From NCBI GenBank assembly GCA_023262185.1, contig JALRDO010000002.1, forward strand, positions 14,044-78,043: DNA of 64,000 nucleotides, written 5' to 3'. The translations under genes were made by a program, and so were the position numbers. Every line of letters begins with the position of its first letter. Within the stretch, counting starts at the first letter, position 1. This document shows, piece after piece, positions 9,606 through 23,700 of this stretch. Source of the stretch: Flavobacteriaceae bacterium (GTDB lineage: Bacteria; Bacteroidota; Bacteroidia; Flavobacteriales; Flavobacteriaceae). The notes below the pieces were generated by a model. That model ran no database searches. It was not told where the DNA came from and worked only from the letters and a program-made list of their open reading frames with translations.

Positions 9606-9617
9606 GATAAAAGAATC

Positions 9618-9658
9618 AAAGCCCATCAAGCCCTGCTTGTTTGGGCTTTTGTTTTTTT
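9618..9658 (+). terminator. second hairpin plus long T-run
   Basis: aaagccca ... tgggcttt stem enclosing an inner hairpin, followed by ttttgttttttt. Confidence 0.55.
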
Positions 9659-9706
9659 ATCAAATGCACAGGCATAGCCTGTGTTCTTGAAGCTATTTTC
9701 AACATG

Positions 9707-9750
9707 TTCGCAGTGGGAACATTGGCCGCAAGGTCAATGATCTCCCACCC
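9707..9750. repeat. 44-bp hairpin element, copy 1 (GCAA loop)
   Basis: Identical to 9781-9824 except for one base. Folds as a 6-bp plus 8-bp stem with a tetraloop. Confidence 0.85.
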
Positions 9751-9780
9751 AATTTAGGAAGGGTAGAGGTTGTTTTAGGT

Positions 9781-9824
9781 TTCGCAGTGGGAACATTGGC
9801 CGTAAGGTCAATGATCTCCCACCC
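9781..9824. repeat. 44-bp hairpin element, copy 2 (GTAA loop), overlapping the last codons and stop of the 9808-10215 CDS
   Basis: 43/44 identity to copy 1. The spacer between copies is 30 bp. Confidence 0.85.
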
Positions 9825-10215
9825 GTGTCCAGGTTTGGTCGGCGTCTAAGCGGTAAGAACCCTCGAGTTCGAAGTTGCATTCTTCAGGGCTCAAGATGGA
9901 TAAGAAGAGCCCTTTTCCAGGCTTTGAATACAAGTGGTACGTTTTACCCACCACAGGCTCAAAACTGAATGAGGCCTGATACACCTTGCGGTTGTCTTCA
10001 ACCTCTTTCATCATAGTCTCGTATGCCTTTTTCAATTCATCAATACGTGCCTTAAAGCGAGCATTGACTTGATGTGCACCCCGCTGCTTCCATCCAGTTA
10101 GGTCGGTGGGTTTGATTACTGGCCCTGTTACGTTGGTAGCATAAGGCTTCAAGAAAGCATCGAATTGCTCGCTTTCTTCATTATAGACGACTGAATCGGG
10201 CTTTTTATCCTTCAA
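9808..10215 (-). CDS. conserved hypothetical protein (possibly DUF2452 family)
   Basis: 135-aa ORF that overlaps gpx by 11 nt. The family assignment is from memory only. Confidence 0.45.
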   Translation of the reverse strand: MKDKKPDSVVYNEESEQFDAFLKPYATNVTGPVIKPTDLTGWKQRGAHQVNARFKARIDELKKAYETMMKEVEDNRKVYQASFSFEPVVGKTYHLYSKPGKGLFLSILSPEECNFELEGSYRLDADQTWTRVGDH

Positions 10216-10741
10216 AGTACTTGGTTATTTTTGATGATGTCGGATCTGTAGTAGAAAGATACGAATCGATCAAAACACGCTCTGGACTGATGAGGTATTT
10301 TTGGAAATTCCACTTTACGGTGCTAGACTTTGTCCCATTTTCTTCTTTCGAGGTAAGCCATTTGTACAGTGGATGGGATTGAGGGCCTTTAACTTTTACC
10401 TTTTCGGTCATGGTGAAACTCACTCCATAATTGAGGGAGCAGAAAGACTGAATGTCTTCAGCCGACCCCGGTTCTTGTGCCCCAAATTGATTACAGGGAA
10501 CTCCAATGATTTCAAGCTTGTCTTGATGCTGCTCATAGAGTGACTGAAGCTTCTTGTACTGGGGAGTAAAACCACAGTTCGAAGCTACATTTACAATAAG
10601 CAGATATTTACCGTCAAAAGCATCCCAGACTAGGGGATTACCGTCTAGTTTTTTGATCTCTATGTTCGGTAAGGGGTGTGGCGTACTAGGGGTACCATTC
10701 ATTTTGAGCAAACTATTTTTTATCGAATCAACTAGTTTCAT
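10205..10741 (-). CDS. glutathione peroxidase (Cys type)
   Basis: NVASNCGFT active site, CNQFGAQEPG and WNFQKYLI motifs. Confidence 0.9.
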   Translation of the reverse strand: MKLVDSIKNSLLKMNGTPSTPHPLPNIEIKKLDGNPLVWDAFDGKYLLIVNVASNCGFTPQYKKLQSLYEQHQDKLEIIGVPCNQFGAQEPGSAEDIQSFCSLNYGVSFTMTEKVKVKGPQSHPLYKWLTSKEENGTKSSTVKWNFQKYLISPERVLIDSYLSTTDPTSSKITKYFEG

Positions 10742-11442
10742 TATCCGTAGATATAACGGTGTAATTCAGCTAATTTTTCGGTTTGTTCAAATTGTCCACC
10801 GTAGAATGAAGTGACCGTAGCTGAGGTGTCGTCTTTGATTCCGCGCGAAGAAACGCAAAGGTGTTTTGCATCGATAATCACAGCAACATCCTCAGTGCCG
10901 AGTATGGCTTGTAAATCTGTACCAATCTGATTAGTCAGTCGTTCTTGAACTTGAGGTCGCTTGGCATAATATTGAACGATCCTGTTGAGTTTAGACAATC
11001 CAATCACCTTACCCGAAGAAATATAGGCGACATGAGCTTGTCCAATAATCGGCACAAAATGGTGTTCGCAGTTTGAATAAAAGGTGATGTTTTTTTCTAC
11101 GAGCATTTGCCCGTATTCATATTTGTTTTCAAACAACGCCACCTTAGGTTTGTTTGCTGGGTTCAGCCCTGAGAAAATCTCGTCGATGTACATTTTGGCC
11201 ACGCGCATGGGAGTGCCTCTTAATGAATCGTCAGTGAGATCGAGCCCCATTACGTGCATGATTTGCTCGAAAAGTGCAGCAATTTGCTCTTTTTTCTCAG
11301 TATCACTTTGTTCGAAAGCATCAGCTCTTAGTGGAGTTTCTAATCCGGAATACAGGTGATCGTCACCGATTTCATCTATATCCAAACCAGCAAAGGCCTT
11401 TGACGAAAGCGCTCTCTCAATAAGTGTTTTGGGATTGTTCAT
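10741..11442 (-). CDS. folE: GTP cyclohydrolase I
   Basis: SNCEHHFVP zinc-site motif and VIIDAKHLC. Confidence 0.9.
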   Translation of the reverse strand: MNNPKTLIERALSSKAFAGLDIDEIGDDHLYSGLETPLRADAFEQSDTEKKEQIAALFEQIMHVMGLDLTDDSLRGTPMRVAKMYIDEIFSGLNPANKPKVALFENKYEYGQMLVEKNITFYSNCEHHFVPIIGQAHVAYISSGKVIGLSKLNRIVQYYAKRPQVQERLTNQIGTDLQAILGTEDVAVIIDAKHLCVSSRGIKDDTSATVTSFYGGQFEQTEKLAELHRYIYG

Positions 11443-11482: not shown

Positions 11483-11521
11483 CTAATTCTGTTTAACTAT
11501 ATTTAAATTTTATTAAACAAA

Positions 11522-11938
11522 TTAATGAGGCAGCTTGGGGCGGAGCATTCCGTAAACAAAGGTTCCTGCAATGGCAGAGGCCAGAACAACAATTACGGGT
11601 AAAAATCCTGCTCCGATTAGCGTAAAAATCGGGCCAGGACATGCACCGGCAAGACCCCAACCAAGGCCAAAAATTGTTCCGCCAAACAAATAGTTTTTCC
11701 ATCCTTTGGCTTTTGGTGGAATGATAATTTCTTCGCCTGAGAAAGATTTCACTTTGTTGCGTTTAATCAGTTGAATTCCGATGACTCCTACAGCTAAGGC
11801 TGAGCCTATGATCCCGTACATGTGAAATGAATCGAACTGGAACATTTCAACGATTCTAAACCAAGAAGCAGCTTCTGACTTGAACATAATGATGCCAAAG
11901 GCGATTCCGGTAAGTAGGTATTTTATAGTATTTATCAT
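11522..11938 (-). CDS. YeeE/YedE-family sulfur-compound transporter, C-terminal-half homolog
   Basis: 138-aa, 4-TM protein with a GLAGACPGP motif. Lies 3 nt after its partner gene. Confidence 0.7.
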   Translation of the reverse strand: MINTIKYLLTGIAFGIIMFKSEAASWFRIVEMFQFDSFHMYGIIGSALAVGVIGIQLIKRNKVKSFSGEEIIIPPKAKGWKNYLFGGTIFGLGWGLAGACPGPIFTLIGAGFLPVIVVLASAIAGTFVYGMLRPKLPH

Positions 11939-11941
11939 GAC

Positions 11942-12505
11942 TTAAGCGAATAGAAGTGGGTAAATAAAATGAACCATTAAAAGTCCTCCGGCAAAGAAGC
12001 CAATCACTGCGATTAAGGAAGGAAGCTGAAGATCACTGAGACCTGATATCGCATGACCTGAGGTGCATCCGCCTGCAAAGCGCGATCCAAAGCCCACTAA
12101 AAAGCCCCCGACGGCAATGAGAATTAAACTTTTCGGATTCGAGAGCGCTTCCATAGAGAAAAGTTGTTCTGGTAAATAAGCACTTCCTCCGTCGTTAAAT
12201 CCGTATTGCTGAAGCCATTGAATGGTGTTTTCTGAAATATCAACCGATACGTCAGTGCTCAAAAAGGTAATCGCGATATATCCACCTACTATAGCACCGA
12301 TACTAAAAACGAGGTTCCATCGCTGAGCCTTCCAATCAAACTTAAAGAAATCACACGCCTTATTGCCACCAATGGCTGCACAAAGGGTTCTGAGATTTCC
12401 TGACATTCCGAAATTGCGGCCAGAGAGGATGAGAAAAAACATCACCGCCGCGATAAGCGGGCCCGACACGTACCAAGGCCATGGATTAAGTATAGCTTCT
12501 AACAT
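11942..12505 (-). CDS. YeeE/YedE-family sulfur-compound transporter, N-terminal-half homolog
   Basis: 187-aa membrane protein with a FAGGCTSGHAISG motif. Confidence 0.7.
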   Translation of the reverse strand: MLEAILNPWPWYVSGPLIAAVMFFLILSGRNFGMSGNLRTLCAAIGGNKACDFFKFDWKAQRWNLVFSIGAIVGGYIAITFLSTDVSVDISENTIQWLQQYGFNDGGSAYLPEQLFSMEALSNPKSLILIAVGGFLVGFGSRFAGGCTSGHAISGLSDLQLPSLIAVIGFFAGGLLMVHFIYPLLFA

Positions 12506-12527: not shown

Positions 12528-12535
12528 CAAAAATA
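12528..12535 (-). promoter_or_regulatory. -7 promoter box TATTTTTG for the yeeE pair
   Basis: Exact TAnnTTTG match on the minus strand. It starts 30 nt after the dyad centre at 12565.5. Confidence 0.55.
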
Positions 12536-12554: not shown

Positions 12555-12576
12555 AAAGGTAACCTAGGTTACCTTT
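12555..12576 (-). promoter_or_regulatory. perfect 22-bp palindrome with GTAAC-ctag-GTTAC core (candidate Crp/Fnr operator, site A)
   Basis: aaaggtaacctaggttaccttt is its own reverse complement. One of four related dyads in the locus. Confidence 0.6.
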
Positions 12577-12621
12577 CGAAATAAAGAAATAAAAAAAACT
12601 CCATTGGGAGGTTTTTAGAAT

Positions 12622-13905
12622 TTAAACATCTTCTCCTTTGAGCATCTTATTCCAATAGAGGTAAGGAAGCCCAAACTTCTTTAACATCCACAACCTCCAG
12701 TGTTCCTTTGAACTGTCGAATACTAGCATCTGCTTTAATTTCGGATCTGGGGTGAAGTTGTTGTCGTAGTCGAACTCTGCAAGAACCATTTTTCCATACC
12801 CCGTTACTAGCGGACATGAAGAATATCCATTATAACTCCTTGTGCCGAGCTTATTCTCTTTTTTGAGTTTAAGAATATTATCGATTACGATAGGTGCCTG
12901 GTTACGTATCGCAGCTCCTGTTTTGGCTGTCGGTACTCCGACCACATCTCCGATGCCAAAGACATTAGCAAACTTTTGGTGTTGAAGTGTGTGTTTATTT
13001 ACATCAAGCCATCCTTCCTCATTCGCTAAAGCCGATTCGCGAACAAATTTTGGTGCTGCTTGTGGTGGTGCCAAATGAAGAAAATCGAACTTAATCGCGA
13101 TGCGGCCACCTTCTTCTTTAGTGGCTCCGAAAGCATTTTGAGGATCCCATGAACAACCCTCTTTCTGACTGAAGCAGGCGTGATCTTCGGGTGTTTTATC
13201 GGTAAAGTATACGACCTTGTTTTTTCCATCAATTTCAACTGGAGTGTGATACGGATGAAAATGAATACCATATTTACGGATGACCTTCATCAAGGTTTCT
13301 CGTATAACAGGTACCCCAAAAATGACGGTCCCAGGAGTAGCGAACATCATGTTGGTTTTCTTGTCAATGCCTTTTTTTCTGAGATAATCAGCGGCTAGAT
13401 AGGCGATCTTTTGAGGCGCTCCACCACATTTTATAGGAGTGGCGGGTTGCGTAAAGATTGCGTTTCCGCCTTTGAATTCTTGTAGTAGCTTCCAAGTGTG
13501 TTCAGGATCTGTATAGTTACTGCAAACTGCCCCTGATTTCATGGCATCCTCTAGACCTTTAATCATGCTAGGTTCCATCACTAGTCCTGGAGAAACGACG
13601 AGAAAGTCGTAAGAAATAGTTCCATTACTCGCTGTTTCTACCGCATTGTTCTCGGGATCAAAGCTCGTCACGGCATCTTTAATCCAATCGACGCCAGAGG
13701 GGATGAGTTCTGCCATGGGCTTCGCCGTTTTATTGTAGTCGAAAGTGCCGGCGCCAACTAATGTCCATGCTGGCTGGTAGTAGTGTGTGTCGGCGGGATC
13801 GATAATTCCGATAGATAAAGACTTGTCTAATTTTCTTAAACGAGCGGCCGTCATTAAGCCACCAGTTCCTGCCCCAATGATGAGGATTTCAAGTGATTTA
13901 GACAT
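12622..13905 (-). CDS. sqr: sulfide:quinone oxidoreductase (type II-like flavoprotein)
   Basis: N-terminal FAD fold IIGAGTGG. Redox Cys motifs PIKCGGAPQK and YSSCPLVTG resemble type II / mitochondrial-type SQR. Confidence 0.8.
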   Translation of the reverse strand: MSKSLEILIIGAGTGGLMTAARLRKLDKSLSIGIIDPADTHYYQPAWTLVGAGTFDYNKTAKPMAELIPSGVDWIKDAVTSFDPENNAVETASNGTISYDFLVVSPGLVMEPSMIKGLEDAMKSGAVCSNYTDPEHTWKLLQEFKGGNAIFTQPATPIKCGGAPQKIAYLAADYLRKKGIDKKTNMMFATPGTVIFGVPVIRETLMKVIRKYGIHFHPYHTPVEIDGKNKVVYFTDKTPEDHACFSQKEGCSWDPQNAFGATKEEGGRIAIKFDFLHLAPPQAAPKFVRESALANEEGWLDVNKHTLQHQKFANVFGIGDVVGVPTAKTGAAIRNQAPIVIDNILKLKKENKLGTRSYNGYSSCPLVTGYGKMVLAEFDYDNNFTPDPKLKQMLVFDSSKEHWRLWMLKKFGLPYLYWNKMLKGEDV

Positions 13906-13945
13906 CTGTTTAGGTATTAGTTAAGTGTTTAGGTTTGAAAAAGGT

Positions 13946-13998
13946 AAAAAAAAAATAACCCTTTGCCTTTGTAACATAAGTTACATAAGCAAAGGGTT
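13946..13998 (-). terminator. intrinsic terminator after the persulfide dioxygenase gene
   Basis: Stem aaccctttgc/gcaaagggtt (10 bp), extended by the inner dyad. A T10 run follows on the minus strand. Confidence 0.7.
13970..13985 (-). promoter_or_regulatory. dyad tGTAACataaGTTACa (candidate Crp/Fnr operator, site B) upstream of sqr
   Basis: Perfect half-site symmetry. Shares its centre with the terminator hairpin. Confidence 0.55.
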
Positions 13999-14022
13999 GT
14001 CTTAAAAAAGAAAACAGGTGTT

Positions 14023-15441
14023 TTATGCCGATGGCATCGTTGATGGGCAAACGTAGTCGGTCAATTTAATTTCAGCAGCCTCCATGGCTTTGAATCCACC
14101 GTCTACATTGATCATATTGTGAATTCCGCGGCTCTTTAAAATTGAAGCGGCAATAACTGAACGGTATCCTCCAGCACAATGAATGTAGAACGATCCGTCT
14201 TCTGGGAATTCTTCTAGATAATTATTTAAGAAATCAAGAGGAGCGTTGTGCGAGTCAGGAACACGGTGTGCATAGTGTTCAGACTCTTTACGAACGTCAA
14301 AGATCTCTACTGGGCCTGAAGCCATTTCTTTCTTGAGTTCTTCTGCAGTTACAGTGCTTACATTGTCGTATTCTTTGCCTGACTTCTTCCACTGCTCGAA
14401 ACCTCCTTCTAGATAGCCTAGTGTGTTGTCGAACCCAACGCGTGCAATGCGTGTGATGGCTTCTTCTTCACGACCTTCTGGAGTCACCAAAAGAATAGGC
14501 TGCTCAGTGTCTGCTACAAGGGCGCCAACCCATGGGGCAAAGCTTCCATCAAGACCGATAAAAATGGAACGAGGCACATGTCCCTGCGCGAAGTCTTTCT
14601 CGTTGCGAACGTCAAGAACAATAGCGCCTGTTTGATTTGCAACGTCTTCGAAGGCCTCAGGGCTCAACGGACGAGATCCACGCTCAAGTACTTCATCAAA
14701 ATCATCGTATCCTTCTTTATTCATCTTCACGTTTAGAGGAAAATATTGAGGAGGAGGCAGCAATCCGTCGGTTACCTCTTTGACGAATTCTTCTTTGGTC
14801 ATATCTGCACGAAGGGCATAGTTCATTTTTTTTTGGTTACCCAACGAGTCAACCGTTTCTTTCATCATGTTTTTTCCGCAGGCTGAACCTGCTCCGTGAC
14901 CTGGATATACCGTAACATCGTCTGCTAATGGCATAATCTTATTGCGTAAGCTGTCGTATAAGGTTTCTGCCAATTGCTCTTGGGTCATGTGTGCCGCTTT
15001 TTGTGCCAAATCGGGTCTTCCGACGTCACCTAAGAAAAGGGTGTCACCACTAAAGATGGCATGGTCTTTACCCGATGCATCTCTCAACAAGTAGGTGGTC
15101 GATTCCATGGTGTGACCTGGGGTATGTAAAACAACAATGGTAACATCTCCTAATTTAAACTCTTGCCCATCTTTTGCGATAATAGCGTCAAAACTAGGGT
15201 TCGCATTTGGTCCATAGATAATAGGAGCCCCCGACTCTTTTCCTAAGGTAACGTGGCCACTCACGAAGTCGGCGTGAAAATGCGTTTCAAAAATGTACTT
15301 GATCGATGCATTTGACTCTTTAGCTTTATCAAGGTATGGTTGAACCTCGCGTAATGGATCGATGATGGCTACCTCTCCGTTACTTTCAATATAATAAGCT
15401 CCTTGAGCTAGGCATCCGGTGTATATCTGTTCTATTTTCAT
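14023..15441 (-). CDS. persulfide dioxygenase (MBL fold) fused to two rhodanese-homology domains (CstB-like)
   Basis: Metal motif HFHADFVSGH. The middle rhodanese-like domain has no Cys. The C-terminal rhodanese has the active loop HCAGGYRS. Confidence 0.8.
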   Translation of the reverse strand: MKIEQIYTGCLAQGAYYIESNGEVAIIDPLREVQPYLDKAKESNASIKYIFETHFHADFVSGHVTLGKESGAPIIYGPNANPSFDAIIAKDGQEFKLGDVTIVVLHTPGHTMESTTYLLRDASGKDHAIFSGDTLFLGDVGRPDLAQKAAHMTQEQLAETLYDSLRNKIMPLADDVTVYPGHGAGSACGKNMMKETVDSLGNQKKMNYALRADMTKEEFVKEVTDGLLPPPQYFPLNVKMNKEGYDDFDEVLERGSRPLSPEAFEDVANQTGAIVLDVRNEKDFAQGHVPRSIFIGLDGSFAPWVGALVADTEQPILLVTPEGREEEAITRIARVGFDNTLGYLEGGFEQWKKSGKEYDNVSTVTAEELKKEMASGPVEIFDVRKESEHYAHRVPDSHNAPLDFLNNYLEEFPEDGSFYIHCAGGYRSVIAASILKSRGIHNMINVDGGFKAMEAAEIKLTDYVCPSTMPSA

Positions 15442-15498
15442 GTTGTATGTTGATTTTTGTTTTGCAAGGCGAAAATAGTATAGCCTTAATTTTCAAAA

Positions 15499-15514
15499 TG
15501 TTACTAAAGTTACA
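15499..15514 (-). promoter_or_regulatory. dyad tGTTACtaaaGTTACa (candidate Crp/Fnr operator, site C) upstream of the dioxygenase gene
   Basis: One central mismatch from perfect symmetry. 29 nt lie between the dyad centre and a TATTTTCG -7-like box. Confidence 0.5.
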
Positions 15515-15518
15515 TATT

Positions 15519-17246
15519 CTAGGATTTTGACTCTAGCGCGATTTTTTTACCCAAATCTTCTGCGCCATGCTCACCCGATGCTACTTGGTAGGCACTGTGT
15601 GTGTTTTCAAAAAACGAATCTTCTCCAAGAAGAGATACAATACCACTTCGCCTTAGGATATCCCTTATTGGTCCTATAGGTCCAGCGATCGAAACAGTAA
15701 TGTTTTTTGATTTCAAATCTTCAAAGAATTGACGTAGCATAAAGGCGGCTGAACTATCGATATAGTTTATAGGCTCTACATTTAAAATGAGGTGTTTTAA
15801 TGAGGCTCCTCGCCCCTCAATGGCCGCCATGAGGCTAGTTTTGAAATATTCTTTGTTTCCGAAATAGAGCTGTCCATCAAAACGAAAAAGCAATATGGCC
15901 GGATCGATGGTTACCTCATTGGCAAAGCGCTTCACATTTCTGTAATAAGGGCTTTGGTTCACCCGAGCTAGAATGGCATAGTGAGGGCTTGAACTGCGGT
16001 AAACAAGAAGTAACAGTGAGAGCAGCACACCAAACAATATTCCTTCTTTGATTCCTACTGTTAGTGTAATCACAAAGGTAAAAATCAATAGCGCAAATTC
16101 ATCCTTTCTGTTTTTCAACAGGGTTAGAGGATATTGAATATCGATCAGACCGAATACTGCTACCATTATTATGGCGGCAAGAACGGTGTTAGGAAGGTAA
16201 TAAAATAGTGGGGTAAGAAAGAGTAAGGTTAAACCTACAATGGCTGCGCTGATAAAAGAGGCTAGGGTAGAATTGGCTCCTGCCTGATCGTTAACCGCCG
16301 TTCTAGAGAACCCGCCCGTGGTAGGATAGGATTGAAAAAGTGAGCCCACCAAATTAGAGAGCCCCAAGGCGACCAACTCTTGGTTTGGTTTTACTTCATT
16401 GAGTCTGTGCTTTTCTTCTATAGCCTTGGCAACCGAGATAGCTTCCATGAAGGCGATCAGTGCTAAGGTCATTGCGATAGGGAATAGTTCTGAGATACGA
16501 TCTTGTCCTACTGAGGGGACTCCAAAAGAGGGCAGCCCTGAGGGAACTTCTTGTACAATAGAAAGTCCTAATTGATCCAATCTAAATAAGTAGGTGATGA
16601 CAATCCCTAAAACAGTCACAATGAGTGCTCCGGGAATACATTTGTTGAGTCGTTTTAATACTTTGATGAGCATTATGGCCGCTATTCCAAGCCCTAACGC
16701 AATAAGATTGGTTTGGTCAATGGTTTTAAGGGCATTTAAAAGCAAAATGTGTATTTGATTGCTTCGTTCTATTTGGGTCCCTAAAAGGTGTTTGAGTTGA
16801 CTTAGGCCAATAATGAGAGCAGCCGCTGTGGTGAATCCACTGATTACAGGCTTTGAGAGAAAGTTGACCAAGAATCCCATGCGGACCATTCCTAAAACAA
16901 ACTGTATAACTCCCATGAACAATGCTAGAAAAATAGCCATGCTCAAATATTCTTCAATACCCGAAAGCGATAAGGCTCCGAGTCCTGAGGCGACGAGCAA
17001 CGAGTCCATCGCAACAGGTCCGACGCTTAACTGACGCGATGTTCCGAGAATACCATAGATGACCTGGGGGACAAGCGCAGCATATAATCCAAATACCGGA
17101 GGTAGGCCTGCAATCATCGCATAAGCCATACCTTGAGGAATGAGCATGATACCCACAGTGATTCCTGCCGAGAGGTCACCACCTAGGTATTCTTTTTTGT
17201 AATTGGGCAGCCAGTCTAGCAGAGGTATAAAGGACTTCAATTTCAT
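15519..17246 (-). CDS. SulP-family inorganic anion transporter with C-terminal STAS domain
   Basis: 575 aa. Multi-TM SLC26/SulP core (SVGPVA motif) and a STAS-like tail. Confidence 0.85.
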   Translation of the reverse strand: MKLKSFIPLLDWLPNYKKEYLGGDLSAGITVGIMLIPQGMAYAMIAGLPPVFGLYAALVPQVIYGILGTSRQLSVGPVAMDSLLVASGLGALSLSGIEEYLSMAIFLALFMGVIQFVLGMVRMGFLVNFLSKPVISGFTTAAALIIGLSQLKHLLGTQIERSNQIHILLLNALKTIDQTNLIALGLGIAAIMLIKVLKRLNKCIPGALIVTVLGIVITYLFRLDQLGLSIVQEVPSGLPSFGVPSVGQDRISELFPIAMTLALIAFMEAISVAKAIEEKHRLNEVKPNQELVALGLSNLVGSLFQSYPTTGGFSRTAVNDQAGANSTLASFISAAIVGLTLLFLTPLFYYLPNTVLAAIIMVAVFGLIDIQYPLTLLKNRKDEFALLIFTFVITLTVGIKEGILFGVLLSLLLLVYRSSSPHYAILARVNQSPYYRNVKRFANEVTIDPAILLFRFDGQLYFGNKEYFKTSLMAAIEGRGASLKHLILNVEPINYIDSSAAFMLRQFFEDLKSKNITVSIAGPIGPIRDILRRSGIVSLLGEDSFFENTHSAYQVASGEHGAEDLGKKIALESKS

Positions 17247-17255
17247 GTATAGAGG

Positions 17256-17888
17256 TTAGAGGTCTATGATTTCGATATGATTTCGATGCAGTTTAATGCT
17301 ACCTACTTGCTCTAGTTTTTTGAGTAGGCGTGAAATTACTACACGAGAGCTGTGAAGCTCTTCAGCGATCTCTTTGTGTGTTTGGTACACAGAGTTTTCG
17401 CTGTTGATTCTAGATTTTTCTTTGAGATAGTCTTCGAGCCTTTCGTCTAGGCGTTCAAATGCCACTTTTTCTAGGCTTTCTAAAACCTCTTCAATGCGAT
17501 TTTGATAGTTTGAGAATACAAAGGTGCGCCAGCTTTGGTAGCGACCGAGCCACTCCTCCATCTTTTGAACCGGTATCATGATAAGTAAGGTGTCTAACTC
17601 GGCCACTGCTCGAATATGACTCTTTCGTTGCTCTACACAGCAGCTCATAGACATTGAACAGGTGTTTCCTTCCTCTACATAATAAAGGAGTAATTCTTCG
17701 CCATTATCGTACTCGCGTAAGACCTTAATCGCTCCGGTTAAGAGTAAAGGGATGCTTTTAATGTATTCTCCACTTCTTATGATTTCAGATCCGGCCTCTA
17801 TCTCGCGAAAGGTTCCAACCTGATTGATTTCTTGAAGTAAGGCGGATTCAAATATTTCTCCGTATGTCCCAGTGAGTTCTTTAATCAT
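17256..17888 (-). CDS. Crp/Fnr-family transcriptional regulator with clustered cysteines
   Basis: cNMP-binding-like barrel and C-terminal HTH SRVVISRLLKKLE. Its only cysteines are C77, C83 and C84 (TCSMSMSCC). Confidence 0.85.
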   Translation of the reverse strand: MIKELTGTYGEIFESALLQEINQVGTFREIEAGSEIIRSGEYIKSIPLLLTGAIKVLREYDNGEELLLYYVEEGNTCSMSMSCCVEQRKSHIRAVAELDTLLIMIPVQKMEEWLGRYQSWRTFVFSNYQNRIEEVLESLEKVAFERLDERLEDYLKEKSRINSENSVYQTHKEIAEELHSSRVVISRLLKKLEQVGSIKLHRNHIEIIDL

Positions 17889-17971
17889 GGTTAGGTGATG
17901 AAAGTGCTTTCTCGAAAGTTAATGAAGAATTGTTTGCGAGCATAAAACTAAGCACTAGTAGGTTCGTCAAA

Positions 17972-17987
17972 AGTGACTTGGGTTACA
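17972..17987 (-). promoter_or_regulatory. dyad aGTGACttggGTTACa (candidate Crp/Fnr operator, site D) upstream of the regulator gene
   Basis: One mismatch from symmetry. 29 nt lie between the dyad centre and a TAGTTTTA -7-like box. Confidence 0.5.
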
Positions 17988-18002: not shown

Positions 18003-18030
18003 AAAAAAAGCGCCCACAAGGAGCGCTTTT
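18003..18030 (-). terminator. intrinsic terminator after the TonB-dependent receptor gene
   Basis: agcgc(cc)...(gg)a gcgct stem, followed on the minus strand by T7. Confidence 0.7.
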
Positions 18031-20780: not shown

Positions 20781-23700
20781 ATGAAAAAACTTTTATTAAC
20801 AATTTTGCTTATAACCGCCACAATTGCTGTGACGTTTGCGCAGAGCAGAGTTTCTGGTACAGTTTACGACGAGACAGGACAACCTCTTCCTGGAGCAACA
20901 ATCGCAGTAAAGGGAACCTCATTTGGCGTAGCCACTGATTTTGATGGAAACTTTGCAATAAATGCAGAGAACACTCAAGTGCTTGTGGTGAGCTATATTG
21001 GCTACAAAAATCAGGAGGTCACTGTAGGAGCACAATCAACAATCGAGGTATACCTCGAACTAGGAAACCAGCTTGACGAGGTGGTTGTAACCGGATTTGG
21101 ACGTGAATCAAAGAAATCATTCGCGGGTGCTGCCAAAGTTGTAACTGGGGAAAACATAAGTCAAAAATCCTTCACTAATGTTTCGCAGGCACTTGCAGGA
21201 GAGGCAGCTGGGGTAAACGTTATAAGAACATCTGGACTTCCTGGATCTAGTTCGACGGTTCGAATTCGTGGTTTTGGTTCTATTAATGGAAATGCCGATC
21301 CCCTCTATATTGTGGATGATGCACCCTTCCAAGGATCATTAAACGACATTAACCCTAACGATATAGCTTCAGTAACCGTGCTAAAGGACGCTTCGGCAAC
21401 TGCCCTTTACGGTTCTCAAGGTGCAAGTGGGGTAATCGTTATCACAACCAAAAAAGGTTCTGACTTAGGTGATAAAATTGATGTTACGATTAAATCGGGT
21501 ACCAACTATGAGGGTATGCCGAGATATGACCGTATTTCTTCGCCTGAAGAATATATGAATATCACTTGGGATGGTCTATATCAAAGAGGTCGTCAATTAA
21601 TTGATTCGGGTGAGGTAAGCACAGATGACTACGCCAACGCAACGATTTATGCAAATGAAAGAATTTTTGGTCCGGCAGGTATTGACCCAATGTATAACAT
21701 GTGGGCCAAATCTCCTGCAGGAACAACTACAAGGCCGGATTGGGGGTATTACTCTAGAAGGTATACGCCTGAGGATTGGAATGAATATGCATTCCAAGAT
21801 GCTAGCCGCCAAGAAGTTTTTGTAGGTATTTCAAATTCATCAGATAGATCTTCGGTTTATTCATCATTTGGTTACATTGATGATCAGTCCTATGCTATTA
21901 ATTCAGATTACAAGCGTATAAATGCTAGAATGAGATCTAACCAAAAGTTTGGAAAGTCAATAGAAATTTCAAACACTTTGGCTTACAATTACGACATTAC
22001 GAATAATGCAGGTAACGTAAGTAACTCTAGCAGCCAGTTCTGGTGGGTAAATAACTTACCTCCTATTTATCCCTTATTCTTAAGAGATGATGATGGTAAA
22101 AAAATTGAAGATCCCATTTATGGAGGATACCTATACGATTATGGACTTCAAAGAGGATTTGGTCCCTTAACTAATGGAGTAGCTGACTCCTTTTTAGATG
22201 TTAATAGAACCAAATCACATGCCATTAATTTTAACCAAGAATTGCGCGTTGACCTATTTAATGGATTAACCTTTGAGAACAACACAGCAGTTCAATACAC
22301 CATGTCGAATTATGACAATCTGAATGAACCTTTTTACAGCCCTTCTAAAGGAGCCGGAGGAAGTATATATAAGTCTAAGTCGCAAACTGTAAATTATTCT
22401 ATCCGTACCGGTTTGCGCTATGAAAAGGATTGGGACGATTTTACAATGGACATGTTTGTAAATCATTTGTCTCAGAAATATGAGAATAATTTTATGGCTG
22501 CCTCCATGACTAATTTGGTTCGTCCAGATGGTCTAGAATTAGATAACGCGGTTGTACTGCCTTACAATCCATCCTCAGACACTCAAGCTTATTCATTGGA
22601 AAGTTATGTAGGTAATCTAAACTTAGGTTTAAAAGACCGCTATTTCTTAACAGCAAGTTTCAACCATGACGGTTCTTCTCGTTTTGTTAATGAGAAGTGG
22701 GGTAATTTCTATGCTGTTGGACTTTCTTATGTCATTAGTGATGAGTCATTCTTTAATGTAAAGGGAATAGATTATTTAAAAATGCGAGGTAGTTATGGTA
22801 GTATTGGTGAAGCTAGAGGTAACGGTTTCTATCCTGGCTATGACCTTTTCTCTATCCAAAACTTAAATGATAAGGTTTCGCTTTCTTTTGATACAAAAGG
22901 AAATAAGGATCTTACATGGGAACGCGCGGACATGCTTGACTTGGGTCTTGAATTCGGACTATTCTCAGGATTGATTGACGGTGAAATAGGTTACTACCAA
23001 AAAACTATTAACGACATGTTCTTTTCAAGAAGAGTAGGTCCATCTGCAGGATACGCCTTATTAGATGTTAATGATGGAAGCCTAAGTACTTCAGGTATTG
23101 AATTTGATATTGATTTCAATCTTATAAATACCAGAGAATCATCACTTTCTATTGGTCTTATTGGGGAATCATTCGCGGAAAACTTCAACGCATTACCACT
23201 AGATCCATCTACTGGGTTTGAACAAAAATTTCAAGTTGATGGGAATTTTGGATGGGAAGTTGGTAGATCCAGATATGAGTATTATCTAAGGGAGTCTGCA
23301 GGGGTGGATCCAAAAACTGGAAAAGCTCAATGGTATATGAACTTCGTTGATAATGACTTTGATGGTGAGTTCACTACTGGCGATGAAATAGTTCAGTCGC
23401 TTACACAATATTTACTGGATAATCCTACTGCAGCTATTTCAGAGACAAAAACTGATGTATATAATGACGCAACTAGGAGATTTGTGGATAAGCAATTTAT
23501 ACCAGATGTACGTGGAGCCTTTAGATTAAAGGGAAGTCATAAGAACTTCAACCTGACTATGCTTTTTAACTATTCTTTAGGAGGGTATATTTTCGATAAC
23601 GGGTATCAATTATTGATGAGTAATGCCAATCCGGGAAATAACGCATTCCATATTGATATGCGTGATCGTTGGCAAAAAAATGGCGACATTACAGATGTCC

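Follow-up and report, generated by a model that had tools for sequence, protein, structure and literature searches.

The stretch of DNA analyzed here, 64,000 nucleotides of a Flavobacteriaceae bacterium contig (JALRDO010000002.1) and referred to below at its full length as the window, contains a sulfur locus in which every gene lies on the minus strand (Table 1). The locus encodes a Crp/Fnr-family regulator (crp), a SulP-family anion transporter (sulP), a persulfide-dioxygenase-like protein (pdo), a sulfide:quinone oxidoreductase (SQR)-like flavoprotein (sqr), and the two halves of a YeeE-YedE sulfur-compound transporter. Copies of a short inverted repeat, GTNAC-N4-GTTAC, precede crp, pdo, sqr, and yeeE (dyads a, b, c, and d, respectively), and it is these dyads and their relationship to the adjacent regulator that are considered in this study. 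Domain matches bore out the identities assigned to the regulator, dioxygenase, sqr, and yeeE genes in a preliminary description of the window. The SQR-like protein had its best NCBIfam match in the model "type III SQR, selenoprotein subtype," with 240 bits, less than half the cut-off of 525 bits. As sulP begins 9 nt past crp with no intervening dyad, cotranscription of the two genes from the promoter at dyad a (promoter a) is probable.

Table 1. Genes, dyads, and associated sequence features of the window (window coordinates)
Feature	Positions	Strand	Remarks
Fifth pattern match	22012-22025		Within a SusC/RagA open reading frame; chance-level score
Terminator-like hairpin and T-run	18006-18030	-	Closes the TonB-dependent receptor gene lying upstream and insulates promoter a
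Dyad a, GTGACTTGGGTTAC (minus strand, GTAACCCAAGTCAC)	17973-17986	-	Predicted operator of the crp-sulP unit; predicted center, -41.5
-7 box of crp-sulP promoter, TAGTTTTA	17943-17950	-	22 nt past dyad a, the modal spacing of the family
crp	17256-17888	-	Crp/Fnr-family regulator, 210 amino acids; Pfam PF00027 (cNMP_binding) and PF13545 (HTH_Crp_2) above cut-offs
sulP	15519-17246	-	SulP-family anion transporter with STAS domain
Dyad b, GTTACTAAAGTTAC (minus strand, GTAACTTTAGTAAC)	15500-15513	-	Predicted operator of the pdo-rhodanese promoter, 5 nt beyond the sulP stop codon; predicted center, -41.5
-7 box of pdo promoter, TATTTTCG	15470-15477	-	22 nt past dyad b
pdo	14023-15441	-	MBL-fold protein resembling persulfide dioxygenases, with two rhodanese domains fused to it (domain matches)
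Long hairpin followed by U10	13957-13998	-	Predicted intrinsic terminator of pdo (-26 kcal/mol, z = -6.6; U10 at 13947-13956); includes dyad c
Dyad c, GTAACATAAGTTAC (also given as GTAACTTATGTTAC)	13971-13984	-	Predicted operator of the sqr promoter; predicted center, -43.5
-7-like box of sqr promoter, TACCTTTT	13939-13946	-	24 nt past dyad c (mode + 2)
sqr	12622-13905	-	SQR-like flavoprotein (domain matches)
Perfect 22-bp palindrome	12555-12576	-	Encloses dyad d; checked in the sequence
Dyad d, GTAACCTAGGTTAC	12559-12572	-	Predicted operator of the yeeE-yedE promoter; predicted center, -42.5
-7 box of yeeE promoter, TATTTTTG	12528-12535	-	23 nt past dyad d (mode + 1)
yeeE-yedE operon	11522-12505	-	Two halves of a sulfur-compound transporter (domain matches)
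yeeE	11942-12505	-	First gene of the operon
yedE (DUF6691)	11522-11938	-	Second gene of the operon

A pattern scan recovered all four dyads where the preliminary description had placed them, and the perfect palindrome that it had noted around dyad d was confirmed. Dyad centers lie 91.5, 65.5, 72.5, and 60.5 nt (a to d) from the respective start codons, against 92, 66, 73, and 61 nt noted earlier. GTNAC-N4-GTTAC matched at five places in the window, compared with a mean of 0.27 in dinucleotide-preserving shuffles, and the symmetric pattern GTNAC-N4-GTNAC matched at the same five places (shuffle mean, 0.43). The observed count was reached in none of 100 such shuffles, and the earlier estimate of about 0.5 chance matches per window is near both means. 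The four strong sites are confined to about 450 bp of intergenic DNA of a single locus, with 0.3 to 0.4 expected, while the fifth match, inside a SusC-type open reading frame (ORF), had also been seen before. A position weight matrix was built only from the sites of distant relatives (loci L005 to L080 of a set of 80 Flavobacteriaceae loci comprising up to ±10 kb around regulator orthologues, 1.44 Mb in total) and then applied to the window. It gave 24.9 bits for site c, 20.3 for b, 19.7 for d, and 17.1 for a, the last slightly below the maximum of 30 shuffles (17.2 bits). The susC-internal match scored 7.5 bits, under the 9.2-bit mean top score of shuffled windows. Compared with the shuffles, these scores indicate four genuine sites and one chance match; the latter was rejected as a regulon member on account of its score and its position inside an ORF.

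Orthologues of the regulator with 57 to 65% identity occur across Flavobacteriaceae, among others in Aquimarina, Kordia, Maribacter, Mangrovimonas, Nonlabens, Cellulophaga, Robiginitalea, and Dokdonia, and an identical regulator sequence is present in assemblies of uncultured Flavobacteriaceae. Across the 80 loci, GTAAC-N4-GTTAC occurs 257 times, compared with 1.2 times in shuffles, and GTNAC-N4-GTNAC occurs 319 times, compared with 15.7 times in block shuffles. An ORF starts 20 to 200 nt downstream of 277 of these 319 sites, with a sharp peak at 50 to 70 nt. Phylogenetic footprinting, which the preliminary description had put forward as a check, revealed a dyad preserved ahead of the pdo, sqr, yeeE, and sulP orthologues and, in many cases, ahead of the operon containing the regulator gene. 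At a distance of at most 160 nt, a dyad preceded 85/90 pdo-rhodanese, 21/24 sqr, 14/24 yeeE, and 10/23 sulP orthologues. None of 24 yedE orthologues had a dyad within this distance, in keeping with the second position of this gene in its operon. In the closest clade (L001 to L004; regulators 74 to 88% identical), dyad positions are kept and the flanks have diverged; dyad b is conserved throughout this clade, and counterparts of dyad a lie upstream of crp in L002 to L004.

Autoregulation, likewise proposed earlier from dyad a, would be a feature of only part of the family. A dyad lies ahead of the regulator's own operon in 45 of 77 loci, either directly before the regulator gene (15 loci, within 160 nt) or before a small upstream gene encoding a DUF983 protein (30 loci); in the other 32, none was found within 620 nt. 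In addition, a dyad is located no more than 40 nt past the regulator stop codon, ahead of the next gene, in 57 of the 80 loci, each of which contains the regulator gene by search design. The DUF983 protein is a small membrane protein with a Cys-x2-Cys...Cys-x2-Cys arrangement, encoded about 450 nt upstream of crp in L005 to L080 (e.g., L019, positions 9606 to 10004). Its gene is absent from the window and is the first gene of a dyad-controlled, regulator-containing operon in 22 loci.

The regulator is a transcription factor of the CRP/FNR superfamily, and the 14-bp dyad is in the register of CRP sites, with two 5-bp half-sites (G-T-x-A ... T-x-A-C). The DNA-contacting residues R180, E181, and R185 of CRP align to R182, V183, and R187 of the window regulator, whose recognition helix reads S-R-V-V-I-S-R; the pattern S-R-V-V-[IV]-S-R is present in 79 of the 80 orthologues and was not found in one. 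A search of 1.84 billion cluster representatives (50%-identity clusters) yielded 1,617 relatives scoring E < 1e-10, and among the best 150 of these the recognition helix reads either R-V-V... or R-E-V.... Ten distant members (39 to 46% identity) were looked up, and the gene neighborhood was readable for eight. Sulfur genes adjoin six of these eight, all six with Glu at the position of CRP E181: a rhodanese in P0129 and in P0135; PDO-rhodanese, rhodanese, TPMT, and HMA in P0148; TauE, YeeE/YedE, and PDO in P0142; two rhodaneses, HMA, and SulP in P0132; and a divergent SQR-like gene in P0147. P0143, on a 1.4-kb contig with a DUF6132 gene as sole neighbor, and P0161 and P0158, on contigs of at most 1.6 kb without annotated neighbors, were uninformative. 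Given the 1,617 clusters and the six sulfur-associated neighborhoods, a putative sulfide-sensing type of Crp/Fnr protein appears to be widespread in Bacteroidota.

Dyads with TGTGAT or TGTGAC half-sites (e.g., TGTGATATTCGTCACA) lie upstream in the Glu-type relatives, with 22-nt spacing in most cases where a -7 box is recognizable. GTAAC thus goes with Val-type proteins, and GTGAY goes with their Glu-type relatives. Residue 181 and the third base of the half-site change together, as the CRP-DNA recognition code predicts (Rodionov 2005, PMC1274295). The suggestion that the dyads are operators of the adjacent Crp/Fnr regulator is supported by this match, by their conservation in the 80 loci, and by the rigid 22-nt spacing described below, from all of which we infer that the regulator very probably binds the four window dyads.

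Two further observations concern specificity within the family. Five loci encode a second, paralogous Crp/Fnr protein, 34 to 41% identical (L006, 14106 to 14675; L024, 17034 to 17615; L040, 6028 to 6606; L041, 15745 to 16362; L071, 11318 to 11896), with Glu at CRP position 181 and, of the regulator's three cysteines, just the first (GESC[IVA]MS). A hybrid dyad, GTAACATATGTCAC, directly follows this paralogue in L006, L024, and L071. Maribacter loci L043, L044, L050, L064, L065, and L075 (about position 11516 in most) contain two pdo-rhodanese paralogues. The first of these (about 60% identical to that of the window) is preceded by GTGAC-N4-GTCAC, not GTAAC-N4-GTTAC, a possible sign that regulators of two specificities act at a single locus.

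It was also considered whether the dyads are terminator hairpins or other structural elements, or sites of another protein, with the proximity of a Crp/Fnr gene incidental. Dyad c forms the tip of the strong terminator hairpin predicted for pdo, and the palindrome around dyad d folds as well. Dyads a and b show no significant fold (z = -0.5 for b), and they are therefore not mere terminator hairpins. Moreover, the conserved part of the motif consists of 5 + 5 bases with variable N4 and flanks, which is the footprint of a protein rather than a stem, it agrees with CRP/FNR sites in register and length, and it varies together with regulator residue 181. Structural elements or an unrelated binding protein are therefore a very improbable explanation of the dyads. 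The position of dyad c at the hairpin tip suggests that a single palindrome serves both as intrinsic terminator of pdo and as sqr operator. The same terminator-operator design is found upstream of sqr in L002 to L004, with another stem sequence (CCCTGTGTAAC..GTTACACAGGG plus T-run). At the other end of the locus, folE (GTP cyclohydrolase I) and a glutathione peroxidase gene follow yedE on the same strand (positions 10205 to 11442) after a 79-nt gap without a dyad.

The arrangement of dyads and promoters is highly regular. In the window, 29, 29, 31, and 30 nt (a to d) separate the dyad center from the first base of a TAnnTTTG-like element, exactly as described previously. Among 316 sites of the family, a strong TAnnTTT(G) box lies precisely 22 nt past the dyad (position 37) in 251, and any other offset accounts for at most 8 cases. 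The logo of 246 sites oriented toward genes reads t-n-T-GTAAC-N4-GTTAC-(t-g); after 20 positions without information comes the TAnnTTTG box (T, 94%; A, 89%; n; n; T, 94%; T, 97%; T, 88%; G, 57%). In Flavobacterium psychrophilum, the sigma-A TAnnTTTG box occupies -12 to -5 according to a map of transcription starts (PMC9723704), and 22-nt spacing then puts the modal dyad center at -41.5, the position of class II activators. Placed in this manner, the four window dyads have predicted centers from -41.5 to -43.5 (Table 1), in line with the preliminary description. The +1 spacing of site d recurs at yeeE of L002 and L003. The spacer that separates dyad c from its -7-like box includes a T10 homopolymer (positions 13947 to 13956), in which slippage would shift the phasing of operator and promoter. 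A scan of the window for sigma-70-type promoters returned 16 matches, compared with 12.5 expected, and was uninformative, as the consensus differs from that of Bacteroidota promoters.

Of the -33 TTG element, only T-G at -34/-33 is left across the family, directly abutting the dyad, and the promoter-proximal flank of the dyad is asymmetric, with T where symmetry predicts A. In the window, promoters a, b, and d have TTTG immediately past the dyad, 16 to 17 nt ahead of the -7 box. Rigid 22-nt spacing fits an activator that touches RNA polymerase, and from it we infer that the regulator is likely to activate its targets. The same protein at the same sites could instead be a repressor that occupies the -33 region and is released by reactive sulfur species in the manner of CstR, SqrR, and BigR. 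The dyad does abut or overlap the -33 position, the TTTG of promoters a, b, and d could allow function without an activator, and the well-studied dedicated persulfide sensors are all repressors except FisR (PMC13467558). However, occlusion of a promoter would not require exact spacing, which is kept at 251 of 316 sites and by most sites of relatives with other half-sites, and the -33 element is degenerate across the family. Furthermore, Crp/Fnr proteins centered at -41.5 are mostly activators. Repression is for these reasons considered improbable, and class II activation is preferred.

The genes downstream of the dyads were clustered and annotated with Pfam, in which not every small cluster was covered. 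Apart from the genes represented in the window, the putative targets comprise a TauE/SafE exporter (37 loci), the DUF983 protein encoded ahead of the regulator (22 loci), a fatty-acid-hydroxylase-family membrane protein (15 loci), a single-domain rhodanese (11 loci), a 1-Cys peroxiredoxin (10 loci), a molybdopterin sulfite-oxidase-like enzyme (7 loci), a methyltransferase (6 loci), an HMA-domain protein (4 loci), a TsdA-like diheme cytochrome c (4 loci), and cytochrome bd subunit I (2 loci). As judged from these annotations, the target families represent coherent sulfur-detoxification functions and match the gene content of known sulfide and reactive-sulfur regulons (PMC13467558). Dyad and 22-nt rule are also found before cytochrome bd subunit I (L047, 14788 to 16196), the TsdA-like cytochrome (L050, 18680 to 19717), and the sulfite-oxidase-like molybdoenzyme (L019, 19311 to 20531), which suggests that the regulon reaches respiration and sulfite and thiosulfate oxidation.

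A first AlphaFold model of the regulator, from 17 close orthologues, had a mean predicted local distance difference test (pLDDT) score of 54 and was discarded. The AlphaFold2 model from an alignment of 141 sequences reached a pLDDT of 93.2 and matched 3dv8, CAP, NtcA, DNR, and FNR in Foldseek searches with E values of about 1e-13. The best Protein Data Bank (PDB) match, both by sequence and by fold, is 3DV8. Three cysteines, C77-x5-C83-C84, are invariant in all 80 orthologues. C77 is kept in more than 90% of the 141 aligned family members and in about 97% of the top 150 representatives, 55 of which have the full triad and most others a second cysteine at 83 or 84. In the model, C77 caps a helix (residues 78 to 86) that bears C83 and C84. 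This segment aligns to the phosphate-binding cassette of CRP (I70, F76, E77), that is, to the ligand pocket. The CRP cassette, with its cAMP-binding residues G71, E72, R82, and S83, is replaced by C-S-M-x-x-x-C-C, with only the Ser kept (S90) and Lys89 at the Arg position.

Identification of the regulator as CRP itself was rejected on these replacements and on an equivalog score of 41 bits (cut-off, 266). An FNR identity was rejected as well, as there is no N-terminal cysteine cluster for a [4Fe-4S] center: residues 1 to 76 contain no cysteine, and C77, C83, and C84 are the only cysteines in the protein. Thiol-based sensing of sulfane sulfur at the invariant cysteines is preferred here, and a cofactor-based mechanism is a live alternative. 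A class II activator with another signal, either sulfite or thiosulfate in the pocket or a heme or iron-sulfur cofactor that reports sulfide, O2, or redox state, is possible, if less likely. The regulator segment aligns with F74-C75-M76-H77...C80 of Rhodospirillum rubrum CooA, which includes the heme ligands Cys75 and His77; C77 falls within one residue of Cys75, and M79 aligns with Met76. Porphyromonas gingivalis PgRsp, a Crp/Fnr protein of a "novel family" that was modeled by its authors on 3DV8, binds heme (PMC6955866), and the regulon includes sulfite and thiosulfate enzymes and exporters. On the other hand, single substitutions of Cys76, Met78, or His85 left the heme spectra of PgRsp unchanged (PMC6955866). 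The regulator sequence also lacks the N-terminal Pro2/Ala2 heme ligand of the CooA type, in addition to the FNR-type cluster, and known persulfide sensors are characterized by two or three conserved cysteines (PMC13467558).

Several characterized systems resemble the one described here. NtcA forms the second-best group of solved structures by sequence (1e-10) and by fold, and its helix R-V-T-V-T-R has the same R-V-x-x-x-R recognition residues as the regulator. The NtcA box, GTA-N8-TAC, is centered at -41.5 in class II promoters with a poor -35/-33 element, and GTAAC-N4-GTTAC is a special case of it with the same predicted geometry. However, NtcA belongs to cyanobacteria, acts with another type of sigma-factor promoter, and controls nitrogen rather than sulfur genes. 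NtcA senses 2-oxoglutarate (bound in PDB 2xhk), and the cysteine triad has no counterpart in its aligned segment. With 44.7 bits against an equivalog cut-off of 244.95 (TIGR03697), the regulator was rejected as NtcA.

HcpR2 proteins are predicted nitric oxide/nitrite-stress regulators of hcp in Bacteroides, Clostridium, Thermotogales, and Treponema, with GTAACnnnnGTTAC as predicted operator upstream of hcp (Rodionov et al. 2005, PMC1274295). The preliminary description had mentioned such boxes for HcpR-like regulators and had cautioned that a sulfide oxidation regulon would be a different one; both statements are correct, and regulator and regulon differ here. HcpR2 shares the identical consensus, the Crp/Fnr family, and the loss of Glu at CRP position 181. 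In HcpR2 this position is Pro, in contrast to Val183 in the window regulator and Val in 79 of 80 orthologues, and the dyads of the window precede crp-sulP, pdo, sqr, and yeeE, not hcp; on both counts the regulator was rejected as HcpR2. No hcp was found among the Pfam-annotated target clusters of the 80 loci, the small clusters being in part unannotated, and the P. gingivalis HcpR chain was absent from the PDB sequence matches of the regulator at E ≤ 0.01.

Dedicated persulfide sensors, namely, CstR (CsoR family), SqrR/BigR (ArsR family), FisR (a sigma-54 activator), and SscR (MarR family), were reviewed in August 2026 (PMC13467558). They share with the regulator conserved cysteines and, as predicted here, a regulon of sqr, pdo or pdo-rhodanese, rhodanese, TauE, and YeeE/YedE. 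In CstR, SqrR/BigR, and FisR, the cysteines react with sulfane sulfur to give disulfide to tetrasulfide bridges, by which DNA binding is switched. Their folds are unrelated to Crp/Fnr, and the regulator is thus only a functional analogue of CstR, SqrR/BigR, and FisR, which are of the CsoR, ArsR, and Fis/sigma-54 types. The modes of action differ likewise, as CstR, SqrR, and BigR act by derepression and FisR by sigma-54 enhancer binding, compared with the class II activation predicted here. Neither a Crp/Fnr-type member nor a Bacteroidota sensor is named in that review. CooA and PgRsp share with the regulator a similarly placed Cys-x-Met region (C77-S-M79 here, C75-M76 in CooA, Cys76/Met78 in PgRsp). 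CooA differs in its recognition helix and in the N-terminal Pro/Ala heme ligand, which is missing here; the common template 3DV8 hints at, and no more than hints at, a subfamily shared with PgRsp. In Chlorobaculum tepidum, a CRP-like motif was linked by footprinting to the sulfide-responsive psrABC and cydAB genes (bioRxiv 10.1101/172254). This motif, too, is of Crp type and associated with sulfide-responsive genes, cytochrome bd among them, and the phylum is a sister group that uses the same type of promoter. However, it has no spacer, lies near -58, occurs in two species only, and has no established link to a regulator, and Chlorobaculum sqr is under a different operator and repressor (CT1277). 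No earlier description of a Crp/Fnr-type sulfide or persulfide regulator or of its regulon was found in the literature, for which journal coverage was partial.

Overall, the dyads belong to a familiar type of element, the Crp/Fnr operator, in a predicted class II arrangement, and what is new is their setting on Bacteroidota -33/-7 promoters of a sulfide-detoxification regulon, beside a candidate sensor with a cysteine triad. In the mechanism that we propose, a regulator dimer would bind each TGTAAC-N4-GTTACA-type site, centered about 41.5 to 43.5 bp upstream of the transcription start, where it would abut or overlap the weak -33 element of the sigma-A promoter. From there it would touch RNA polymerase directly and activate transcription as the class II activators CRP, FNR, and NtcA do, and in the window it would control four units (crp-sulP, pdo-rhodanese, sqr, and yeeE-yedE). 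Across Flavobacteriaceae, one regulator and one motif would control a sulfide/reactive-sulfur detoxification regulon composed of persulfide dioxygenase-rhodanese, SQR, the TauE and SulP exporters, YeeE/YedE, the sulfite-oxidase-like and TsdA-like enzymes, peroxiredoxin, and cytochrome bd. We regard this account, taken as a whole, as probable. Held less firmly is the signal, which may be sulfide-derived sulfane sulfur or sulfide itself, sensed at the C77/C83-C84 cluster in what corresponds to the cAMP pocket of CRP; the content of the regulon, from which it is deduced, tips the balance toward a sulfide-derived signal.

Several points weigh against this interpretation. A site beside the -33 element could also repress. 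The regulon content from which the signal is deduced leaves sulfite, thiosulfate, redox state, or a heme or Fe-S cofactor possible, and the related PgRsp is a heme protein. The 80 loci were selected for encoding the regulator, and all sqr and pdo counts stem from such loci. The search pattern itself set the core of the logo, so that independent evidence comes only from enrichment, position, flanks, and spacing. Start positions were derived from the -7 box and not from mapped transcripts, the spacings of window sites c (+2) and d (+1) are found at just 3 and 2 of the 316 family sites, respectively, and the box of site c matches the -7 consensus only weakly.

Dedicated sulfide and persulfide sensors are currently known from the CsoR, ArsR, Fis, and MarR families (PMC13467558). 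The chances are about even that the regulator is the founding Crp/Fnr-family H2S/persulfide sensor, a class II activator on Bacteroidota sigma-A promoters and of a new structural class, with Cys-x5-Cys-Cys in the former cAMP pocket, whether alone or together with a cofactor. Should the cysteine cluster prove to be the sensor, the repertoire of gases and small molecules recognized by the Crp/Fnr fold would be widened. The approximately 250 promoters of identical geometry constitute a natural data set for class II activation on -33/-7 promoters, and the system would supply a sulfide-inducible promoter cassette for Bacteroidota genetics. Flavobacteriia are major marine degraders of sulfur-rich algal and particulate organic matter, and the conserved regulator, motif, and promoter rule together define a testable regulon for how these bacteria cope with sulfide. 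If the proposal is true, the Crp/Fnr family would possess a sulfide counterpart of FNR (O2), CooA (CO), and DNR/HcpR (NO).

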